Below, one piece after another: positions 50,501 to 51,885 of a stretch of DNA of 64,000 nt. The first letter of the stretch is position 1. The number at the start of each line of letters is the position of its first letter. Position numbers: made by a program. The DNA lies in the NCBI RefSeq assembly GCF_054482525.1, contig NZ_CM137006.1. One strand, 5' to 3'.

Positions 50501-51885
50501 TCGGGGAGAGCGTATCCCATGCGCCCAGTTTTTGCAGTGCTTCTTTTGCATAAATGCCAGCGGGAACATGTTCCGGATCGCCAACCGCCAGGCGACCGCC
50601 ATTCAGCAGTGAAGTCCAGTTGGTTTTGCTGTCGATGGTGAAATCTTTCTGCTCGCTGGCTTTCGGTGCTACAACGACCAGGCTATTGCCGAGCAGTGTC
50701 TGACGCGTAGCTGTATCGATCGCTTTTTTATCAACCGCATAATCCATCCATTTCTGATCGGCAGAAATAAACAGATCCGCAGGGGCACCCGCTTCAATCT
50801 GACGGGCGAGAGTAGATGACGAAGCGAAAGAAGAAACCACATCCACGCCTTTCTCTTTTTTATACTGCGTAGCAATGTCCTGCATTGCGTTAGTCAGTGA
50901 TGCGGCGGCGAACACCGTGATTTTCCCTTCATCTGCCACTGCATTGCCAGCAACAGCGAAAGAGAGTGCCGCCCCGGCAAACAAGTTCAACCATTTACGA
51001 GCCATTGGTAACCCCTTAATGTAACGTTATGTAGGCGACAATATAACGACTAACTCGGAATTTTCCCAGCAGTTATTGCTAACCTTTGTGAGGTAGTTAA
51101 GAAAAAATATCGGCAGGAAAAGCAGGAAGTTGAGAAAAATAAATATCCTCCGGCATAGCCGGAGGTTTTTCAAATGCGCCTATAAGGCTCTCTTACCAGC
51201 CGCGCCCTAACAGGCGCACACGATCTGACATTTGCATCCAACTTCGTTACTTACGGCCCGTAAACGGGCTGCCCGGATAGGGAATCGATAACTGCTCTCC
51301 CATTTTATCCTCTTCAAGCTGGTGCTTTATGTAATCCTGTATCTTCGCCGTGTTCTTACCCACCGTATCGACGTAGTACCCTCTGCACCAGAACTCCCTG
51401 TTCCTGTATTTGAATTTCAAATCACCAAACTGCTCGTAAAGCATCAGACTGCTTTTCCCTTTCAGATATCCCATAAAGCCGGATACGCTCATTTTGGGCG
51501 GGATCTCCACAAGCATATGGATATGATCTGCACAGCATTCAGCTTCCAGAATCCGTACACTTTTCCACTCACACAGCTTTCTCAAAATACTGCCTATTGC
51601 TCTACGCTTCTCTCTGTAGAACACCTGTCTTCGGTATTTTGGCGCAAAAACTATGTGATATTTACAGTTCCATCGGGTGTGCGCTAAGCTCTTTTCGTTC
51701 CCCATTGGGACCCCCTTTTGATTTCTTGTTTGACACTTGCAGTTGCCAGACCGCAAGGTGTTTTAACAAATCAAAAGGGGTTTTAATAACTGGCTTAAAG
51801 CTGAAAGCTTTCCGGAACCCCCAGCCTAGCTGGGGGTTTTCTGTGCACAAGAAAATGCCCGACTAAGCGGGCATTCAGGGAATCA

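Follow-up and report, generated by a model that had tools for sequence, protein, structure and literature searches.

The question raised by the locus studied here is why an insertion sequence (IS) should lie precisely at the foot of the acrZ terminator, and whether its position follows a rule that holds for its relatives as well. The locus belongs to a stretch of 64,000 nucleotides (nt) of Escherichia coli DNA (NCBI RefSeq assembly GCF_054482525.1, contig NZ_CM137006.1), referred to here as the window, which is the reverse complement of the gal-mod-bio region of strain K-12. A sequence-only reading of this DNA had noted that an element of the IS200/IS605 family separates acrZ from the modABC promoter, and this is borne out: the spacer holds an intact IS200C that is absent from K-12. 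This copy is an ordinary one, already annotated in RefSeq, and only its location is unusual. A position directly behind a terminator-like hairpin recurs at most of the IS200-group junctions analyzed, which leads to the question of whether the hairpin itself takes part in the choice of the target.

The element and its insertion site

There is very little doubt that the feature is an intact and canonical copy of IS200C, a member of the IS200 group within the IS200/IS605 family, and every property that could be tested points to this family, group, and isoform. Strains 7/2 and 405 have copies that match its 711 bp at 100% identity, and the transposase of the window copy, TnpA, is identical to WP_000526135.1, the protein of five other copies, which RefSeq names 'IS200/IS605-like element IS200C family transposase'. 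The tnpA gene is the sole open reading frame (ORF) with a protein-family match, 711 bp being too short for tnpB. Terminal inverted repeats are absent, the termini GTGCAC... and ...TTTATT forming no such pair, and subterminal hairpins are present at both ends. As in the IS200/IS605 target rule, the left end lies 3' of a short T-rich target, which is degenerate and not a fixed tetranucleotide. In K-12, acrZ and modA are forward-strand genes at 0.795 Mb. Seven of eight bins of the window's plus strand show a negative GC skew, giving the tnpA-sense strand a leading-strand composition; this indirect evidence from a single copy would place that strand in the lagging-strand template, in agreement with the family rule (PMC5027513).

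The element, its parts, and its target are as follows:

51138..51848, minus strand: complete IS200C, delimited by alignment to the K-12 empty site; IS nucleotide n is window position 51849-n
51849..51875, minus strand: acrZ intrinsic terminator, the insertion target; host DNA, identical to K-12
51837..51842, minus strand: A-rich tract AGAAAA, reaching the base of the left-end hairpin from its 5' side
51816..51838, minus strand: perfect left-end hairpin AACCCCCAGC-TAG-GCTGGGGGTT (IS nt 11-33)
51712..51780, minus strand: long stem-loop of the tnpA 5' untranslated region (5'UTR; IS nt 69-137), an inverted repeat 94% complementary
51247..51705, minus strand: tnpA, 152-amino-acid (aa) Y1/HuH transposase with H61, H63, and Y125, identical to WP_000526135.1
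51175..51218, minus strand: imperfect inverted repeat TGCGCCTGTTAGG...CCTTATAGGCGCA, inside the right end
51138..51165, minus strand: right-end hairpin CCTCCGGC-TAT-GCCGGAGG (51147-51165) and 9-nt tail ATATTTATT (51138-51146)

The limits follow from the alignment of the window to the empty acrZ-modA spacer of K-12. At the K-12 junction CATTTTCTT/TTTCTCAAC (NC_000913.3 794956/794957), which stands in the context ...GGGCATTTTCTT/TTTCTCAAC..., the window carries 711 extra bases, at 51138-51848 on the minus strand, running from GTGCACAG to GGAGGATATTTATT. Both ends and the insertion site are thereby defined to the nucleotide, save for the 2-nt ambiguity that results from the T/T identity at both junctions (alternative limits 51140-51850). 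The interval of the sequence-only reading, 51165-51870, has to be shifted, its left edge having cut off the right-end hairpin together with the 9-nt tail; and one of the flanking hairpins it had counted is the acrZ terminator (51854-51875), part of the K-12 backbone and the target of the element.

With the element taken out, the two flanks restore the K-12 sequence, without target duplication. A 2-bp duplication was considered and rejected, the TT of the left flank and the TTT of the right flank being together the five T's of K-12. The uspA and pgi copies are likewise 711-bp units between flanks that match the K-12 empty sites perfectly, and the flanks of the satP copy differ from K-12 by one T within the T-run. 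At acrZ, the left end of the element stands directly 3' of the terminator's T-tract, and the element is co-oriented with acrZ and modABC on the minus strand, as had been said of tnpA and modABC. The terminator consists of the stem-loop AATGCCCG-CTTAGT-CGGGCATT (51854-51875) and the T-tail TTCTT (51849-51853), and the first eight bases past the stem have been kept, save the last (TTTTCTTG, against TTTTCTTT in K-12).

Two other readings of the feature were rejected. It is not conserved backbone of all E. coli, the possibility that the sequence-only reading had raised against itself, since the locus is covered in 5390 genomes and the IS is there in four of them, K-12 not being among them. Nor is it a fragmentary relic, since it is full length, its ORF is intact, and it is fully identical to copies elsewhere.

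The description of the transposase as a 152-aa Y1/HuH protein also holds. The ORF (51247-51705, minus strand; its ATG at IS nt 144) contains the quoted motifs HIVFAPKYRR and ADHIHMLVEIPPK, matches the full Pfam model Y1_Tnp (E = 4e-38), and reaches 147.7 bits against the NCBIfam equivalog transpos_IS200, whose cutoff is 55. The protein aligns to the PDB entries 2a6m, 2vhg, and 2xm3 (E = 1e-16 to 1e-19), with the DHIH motif (H61, H63) and Y125 conserved.

The left-end hairpin, for which shuffled sequences give an expectation of 0 matches, is the candidate transposase-binding hairpin of this end, and the A-rich tract at its foot may be, by analogy with IS608, the guide that base-pairs with the T-rich target. 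The stem takes in the last two A's of this tract (51837-51838) as members of A-T pairs. Both this hairpin and the 5'UTR stem-loop are reproduced when the 160-nt left end is folded (-60.5 kcal/mol, z = -4.75), and the stem-loop sequesters the Shine-Dalgarno sequence GGGGG (about 51711-51715). The Rfam model STnc490 (RF01405), whose gathering score is 56, matches 51715-51838 of the minus strand at 146 bits. This match is to the tnpA-sense strand, and STnc490/art200 is described as antisense to the tnpA 5'UTR, the art200 antisense RNA of Salmonella being the complementary strand of the stem-loop region (PMC4513863); the sequences in the Rfam seed may be those of the sense 5'tnpA RNA or of the other strand.

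The right-end hairpin is preceded by GAAAAA, is terminator-like on both strands according to the terminator scan and the DNA fold, and is followed by the tail that ends the element. In Vibrio copies (loci L023 and L037), its stem is kept by a compensatory double change, from CCTCCGGC/GCCGGAGG to CCACCGGC/GCCGGTGG, and the tail is a plain T-run, so that the right-end hairpin appears to be conserved in structure rather than in sequence. A Ruminococcus variant also has a terminator-like right end.

The closest described relative is IS200 from Salmonella. The published length is 707 bp against 711 bp here, both elements hold a single 152-aa Y1/HuH tnpA, and the Salmonella hairpin (nt 12-34) and stem-loop (nt 69-138) correspond to nt 11-33 and nt 69-137 of the window copy (PMC4513863). 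The STnc490/art200 region is shared, and nothing essential sets the window copy apart except its acrZ-modA location. The Salmonella left-end hairpin acts as a bidirectional Rho-independent terminator that blocks incoming transcription (PMC4513863), about 85% of incoming transcripts being terminated by it (PMC5435999). In strain SCU-102, which carries the same insertion, the sole difference from the window over 4.25 kb falls in this hairpin, where a change from G to A at 51824 breaks one G-C pair of the stem.

Junctions behind terminator-like hairpins

The flanks of other IS200C copies were examined after BLAST matches had been seen to extend past the element into the acrZ terminator. The first five copies, next to acrZ, uspA, cpxP/CpxQ, satP, and pgi, all adjoin a GC-rich hairpin with a T-run, with a co-oriented gene upstream. 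Six further E. coli matches yielded five more sites with the same arrangement (ldr-bcsG, cysH, carB, plaP, and lacZ-lacY), the plaP site being the same in two genomes. A host hairpin with a T-rich tail thus adjoins all 11 of the E. coli insertions examined.

Two of these copies deserve separate mention. The one in E. coli GN02461 immediately follows the cpxP terminator and so abuts the 3' end of a small RNA (sRNA), CpxQ, which is annotated in K-12 and ends with this terminator; the K-12 flank (NC_000913.3 4106100-4106600) gave no exact match for this copy, and its empty site is thus unconfirmed. Strain 7/2 (NZ_CP023820.1 383594-384604) holds an IS200C identical to that of the window in the lacZ-lacY spacer, in antisense orientation relative to the lac operon. 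Immediately before its left end stands the hairpin of the spacer, GGGCAG-ACATGGC-CTGCCC, followed by GGTTATT, a hairpin that is not a functional terminator. The left-end hairpin of this copy should be polar on lacY.

A scan for the left-end hairpin pattern, with one genome per species, extended the comparison to at least 120 loci in Enterobacterales, Vibrio, Oxalobacter, Mailhella/Desulfovibrio, Enterococcus, several Clostridia, Elusimicrobia, and others. Among the matches listed, those loci that could be oriented and whose flank was readable were joined with the window copy and the four earlier E. coli copies to give 108 non-redundant junctions, to which the junction counts below refer. Two tests were applied to the DNA upstream of them:

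Strict hairpin plus T-tail test: IS junctions (n = 108, among the matches listed) 78%; random sites 1.0%; T-run-matched sites 6.6%; ORF-free T-run ends 8.3%
Fold of the 40 nt upstream at or below -10 kcal/mol: IS junctions (n = 108, among the matches listed) 93%; random sites 22%; T-run-matched sites 9%; ORF-free T-run ends 12%

The junctions are also alike in their sequence and spacing. The flank logo of the 108 has T at -1 (96), -2 (99), -4 (91), -5 (102), and -6 (89), position -3 being variable, and the element's own right-end TTTATT fits this logo. From the last G:C pair of the hairpin to the insertion point, the distance is 6-9 nt in 79 of the 108 junctions; it is 8 nt in seven of the nine junctions with an IS200C-type left end, the element's own right-end tail measuring 9 nt. 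The acrZ and uspA insertions fall inside the T-run, leaving TTT on the far side, and the combination of the GAAAA tract with a T-rich target is invariant in the sampled copies.

The same arrangement is found in IS1541 from Yersinia pestis, whose ends are nearly those of the window element, with GTGCCCAGAA followed by the same hairpin on the left and an identical hairpin and tail on the right. All 24 sampled IS1541 copies lie behind a hairpin with a T-run, as IS200C does; unlike the window element, IS1541 has a higher copy number and occurs in tandem. In Yersinia, it has been found between pheL and pheA, the region that holds the attenuator terminator (PMC3082878). In tandem copies of strain NCTC5923 (loci L101, L102, L104, and L118), the left end GTGCCCAGAA... 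is joined directly to the ...GGAGGATATTTATT of another copy, so that the IS1541 right end appears to serve as an insertion target.

Among the matches listed are also loci where the IS200 left-end hairpin stands alone, the remainder of the element being absent, three in Dickeya (L038, L088, and L090) and one in Oscillospiraceae (L092). At L090 and L092, a 12-nt inverted repeat encloses the hairpin (ttgtctatagaa-hairpin-ttctatagacaa), which lies between two terminator-like sequences. These hairpin-only loci may be solo-end remnants or miniature derivatives.

Target choice and probable repeat use of the acrZ site

From what is established for the family, the Y1/HuH transposase would excise the tnpA-sense strand as a single-stranded circle, which would then be pasted into single-stranded DNA (ssDNA) on the lagging-strand template, 3' of a short target. 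In the family model, the cleavage sites pair with a guide tetranucleotide located 5' of each hairpin (PMC5934647). In the window copy, GAAAA stands before the left-end as well as the right-end hairpin, and each cleavage site is rich in T, which by analogy would fit such a guide: the A-rich GAAAA by the left-end hairpin would read a T-rich TTNTT by base pairing. What we add, with less certainty, is that the host hairpin itself would contribute to the choice of target. A terminator, with its GC-rich stem and its T-rich tail of 7-9 nt, mimics the right end of the element (GAAAAA, stem, ATATTTATT), and the transpososome may recognize the combination of hairpin and T-rich tail in ssDNA and integrate at a fixed distance from the stem. 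We put forward tentatively, as possible rather than probable, that the IS200 group, including IS200, IS200C, IS1541, and relatives in Bacillota, Desulfovibrionales, Vibrio, and others, practices such structure-guided homing to terminators, and that this behavior had not been described.

Five observations favor a structural contribution to target choice. The acrZ and uspA insertions fall within the T-run and not at its end, with TTT beyond them; the lacZ-lacY copy makes use of a hairpin that lies on the antisense strand inside an operon and is no terminator; the right ends of Y. pestis copies appear to serve as targets of other copies; the right-end stem is kept by the compensatory change in Vibrio, and a terminator-like right end recurs in the Ruminococcus variant; and the acrZ site seems to have been hit twice, as discussed below.

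Several points weigh against structural homing. The junctions were collected with one exact hairpin pattern, among the matches listed, and thus represent one subgroup and not a random sample. The pairing of guide and target and the mimicry of the right end are both analogies with IS608, in which duplex DNA directly 5' of the target gave no stimulation and even a slight reduction of integration (PMC5027513). Moreover, the association with terminators could be in part a matter of survivorship, insertions behind terminators being harmless and harmless sites being over-represented among surviving copies, which counts against homing.

In its pure form, survivorship is an alternative that we consider doubtful as the whole explanation. 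IS200 would enter any T-rich TTNTT site in ssDNA, and only the harmless copies, those behind terminators, would persist. The T-rich flank is indeed universal among the junctions, a few of which have no convincing hairpin (e.g., L034 and L061), and IS200 and IS1541 insertions recovered by their phenotype (hisD984, inv, and caf1) lie inside genes. In addition, IS608 reads a 4-nt target only and gains nothing from an adjacent duplex (PMC5027513, PMC5934647). Against this, a hairpin precedes just 8% (strict test) or 12% (fold) of the ORF-free T-run ends, compared with 78-93% of the IS junctions among the matches listed, an excess for which selection for an intergenic location alone cannot account. 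The distance from stem to junction is narrow, and the insertion can fall inside a longer T-run. The antisense hairpin within the lac operon is neither a terminator nor an obviously harmless site, and the right end of another copy, too, appears to be used as a target.

The terminators of this family have already drawn attention. In a preprint, terminator-like sequences were strongly enriched upstream of IS200-family transposase genes, with a value of 40.2% for 'outside the element' (n = 20,314), and were read as a means of silencing the transposase, with reference to the work on the internal hairpin. Host terminators are not described in that preprint as the insertion target; we cannot claim novelty for the homing rule, which may have been described in the older IS200 and IS1541 literature.

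Comparison with other systems helps to place the proposed homing. IS608 and ISDra2 resemble IS200C in the transposase fold, which is homologous, and in its catalytic residues, in the subterminal hairpins at both ends, in the lack of target duplication, in the insertion 3' of a short target that is kept at the left flank, and in the bias for the lagging-strand template. They differ in carrying tnpB and in reading a 4-5-nt target (TTAC, TTGAT), next to which no hairpin is known to be required, whereas the IS200 group lacks tnpB and its insertions lie at a fixed 6-9 nt past a GC-rich hairpin. REP-associated tyrosine transposases (RAYTs) are TnpA-related Y1/HuH enzymes that act on extragenic hairpins, but they are single-copy domesticated genes flanked by repetitive extragenic palindromes (REPs), and the match of TnpA to the NCBIfam model REP_Tyr_transpos is weak (32 bits, far under the cutoff of 80). 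Group IIC introns also home to the 3' side of intrinsic terminators, where a stem-loop with a T-run provides a harmless and ubiquitous target. These introns retrohome by means of a ribozyme and a reverse transcriptase, and have no sequence relationship with IS200.

The acrZ site bears on this question through its apparent repeat use. Of the 5426 complete E. coli genomes, 2063 contain full-length IS200C, in up to 35 places per genome, the chromosomal copies numbering roughly 9,500. The element occupies the acrZ-modA spacer in just four of the 5426 (SCU-102, PCN033, 19KM1776, and GmM077), in all of which RefSeq annotates it. Over 24 kb, three of them, SCU-102, PCN033, and 19KM1776, agree with the window at 100.0% identity, the next genome being at 98.4%, and on this sequence identity they form one clone with the window. 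The clone includes human and dog isolates, and PCN033 is presumably of pig origin, its record listing no host.

In the fourth genome, GmM077 (NZ_CM183654.1 3252872-3257122, set against window 49400-53650), the IS follows acrZ at exactly the same nucleotide. The flanks, however, diverge from those of the window by 2.5% (89 differences in about 3,540 positions), some of the differences lying 21-41 bp from the right-end junction, and they are 99.7% identical to those of many empty-site genomes. Because these divergent flanks are closest to genomes with an empty site, the simplest reading of the sequences is that GmM077 looks like a second, independent insertion at the same nucleotide. It is improbable, in our judgment, that one ancestral insertion was moved to GmM077 by homologous recombination and that the site was thus hit once. 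The four genomes do not differ by a single nucleotide in the position of their junctions, and recombination is frequent in E. coli, which speaks for such a transfer; however, the imported patch would need to be barely larger than the IS, given flanks so divergent from the window and so near to the empty-site genomes, and the GmM077 element itself differs from the window's at six positions, including the change S39C in TnpA.

The acrZ-modA insertion can thus serve as a marker of one E. coli lineage, that of SCU-102, PCN033, and 19KM1776. The suggestion that it could be used for strain typing is plausible insofar as three carriers form one clone, and is weakened, as regards strictly clonal use, by the second hit in GmM077. 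As for the group as a whole, the pattern amounts to a testable landing rule for a family regarded as 'dormant': insertion 6-9 nt past a GC-rich hairpin, in its T-rich tail. Under this rule, hot spots would be expected where terminators, attenuators, or the 3' ends of sRNAs lie just upstream, as at pheL and CpxQ. It suggests a natural targeting by structure plus sequence on the part of a Y1 transposase, with a potential use in integration at safe sites. Homing of this kind, if true, would explain the harmlessness of IS200, its persistence, its apparent dormancy, and the repeat hits on one nucleotide behind acrZ.

The acrZ-modABC locus

The gene order around the insertion is modC, modB, modA (50232-51005, minus strand), and acrZ (51883-52032, minus strand), followed by modE and modF on the plus strand. 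Two host features bound the element and its target:

51883..52032, minus strand: acrZ coding sequence, 49 aa, intact, with its stop codon 34 nt upstream of the IS left end
51006..51137, minus strand: native acrZ-modA intergenic DNA, 132 bp, between the IS right end and the modA ATG

The 132 bp that remain before modA are those of K-12 apart from one A/T polymorphism. The ModE operator, CGTTATATTGTCGCCTACATAACG (51025-51048), and the modA start are identical to K-12, as the sequence-only reading had it, and about 89 bp upstream of the operator are native too. Since the modA start site lies within or next to the ModE operator, the core promoter and its upstream region would be intact.

Judged from these sequences, the element would stack two further terminators between acrZ and modA, would block read-through from acrZ even more than in K-12, and would keep itself silent. 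The insulation by the left-end hairpin would fit the termination of about 85% published for Salmonella IS200 (PMC5435999). The copy is probably near-neutral for ModE-controlled expression of modABC, and an effect on modA is possible but unlikely; to be set against this neutrality is that it is deduced solely from the distance to the operator. No sigma-70-like promoter was found in 50900-52200 at the stringency of the scan, which also missed the native modA promoter and hence leaves outward promoters undecided.

It is very improbable that the insertion rewires modABC, through lost upstream context, blocked acrZ read-through, or an outward promoter, even though the IS replaces everything more than 132 bp upstream of the modA ATG, places its two hairpins between acrZ and modA, and belongs to a kind of element whose 3' terminators are known as 'mobile attenuators' of downstream genes (PMC2965389), because the operator and the roughly 89 bp upstream of it are unchanged, the right end showed no sigma-70-like promoter in that same scan with its miss of the modA promoter, acrZ already has its own terminator in K-12, and the insertion persists in a clone recovered from different hosts. 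The IS is thus a probable extra insulator between acrZ and modABC, of little importance for the locus.

Elsewhere in the window, a molybdenum cofactor (Moco) riboswitch lies at 29131-29275 on the minus strand, in the moa operon region (Rfam RF01055, 103 bits). Together with the ModE-controlled modABC, it brings two layers of molybdenum regulation into one window, which is ordinary for E. coli. The bin with the lowest GC content, 8001-16000 (GC 0.478), holds a gene between rhlE and dinG, at about 11658-13670 (13898-15910 in the SCU-102 segment L132), which the SCU-102 annotation describes as the type III secretion effector EspX2 and which is probably a horizontally acquired accessory gene.

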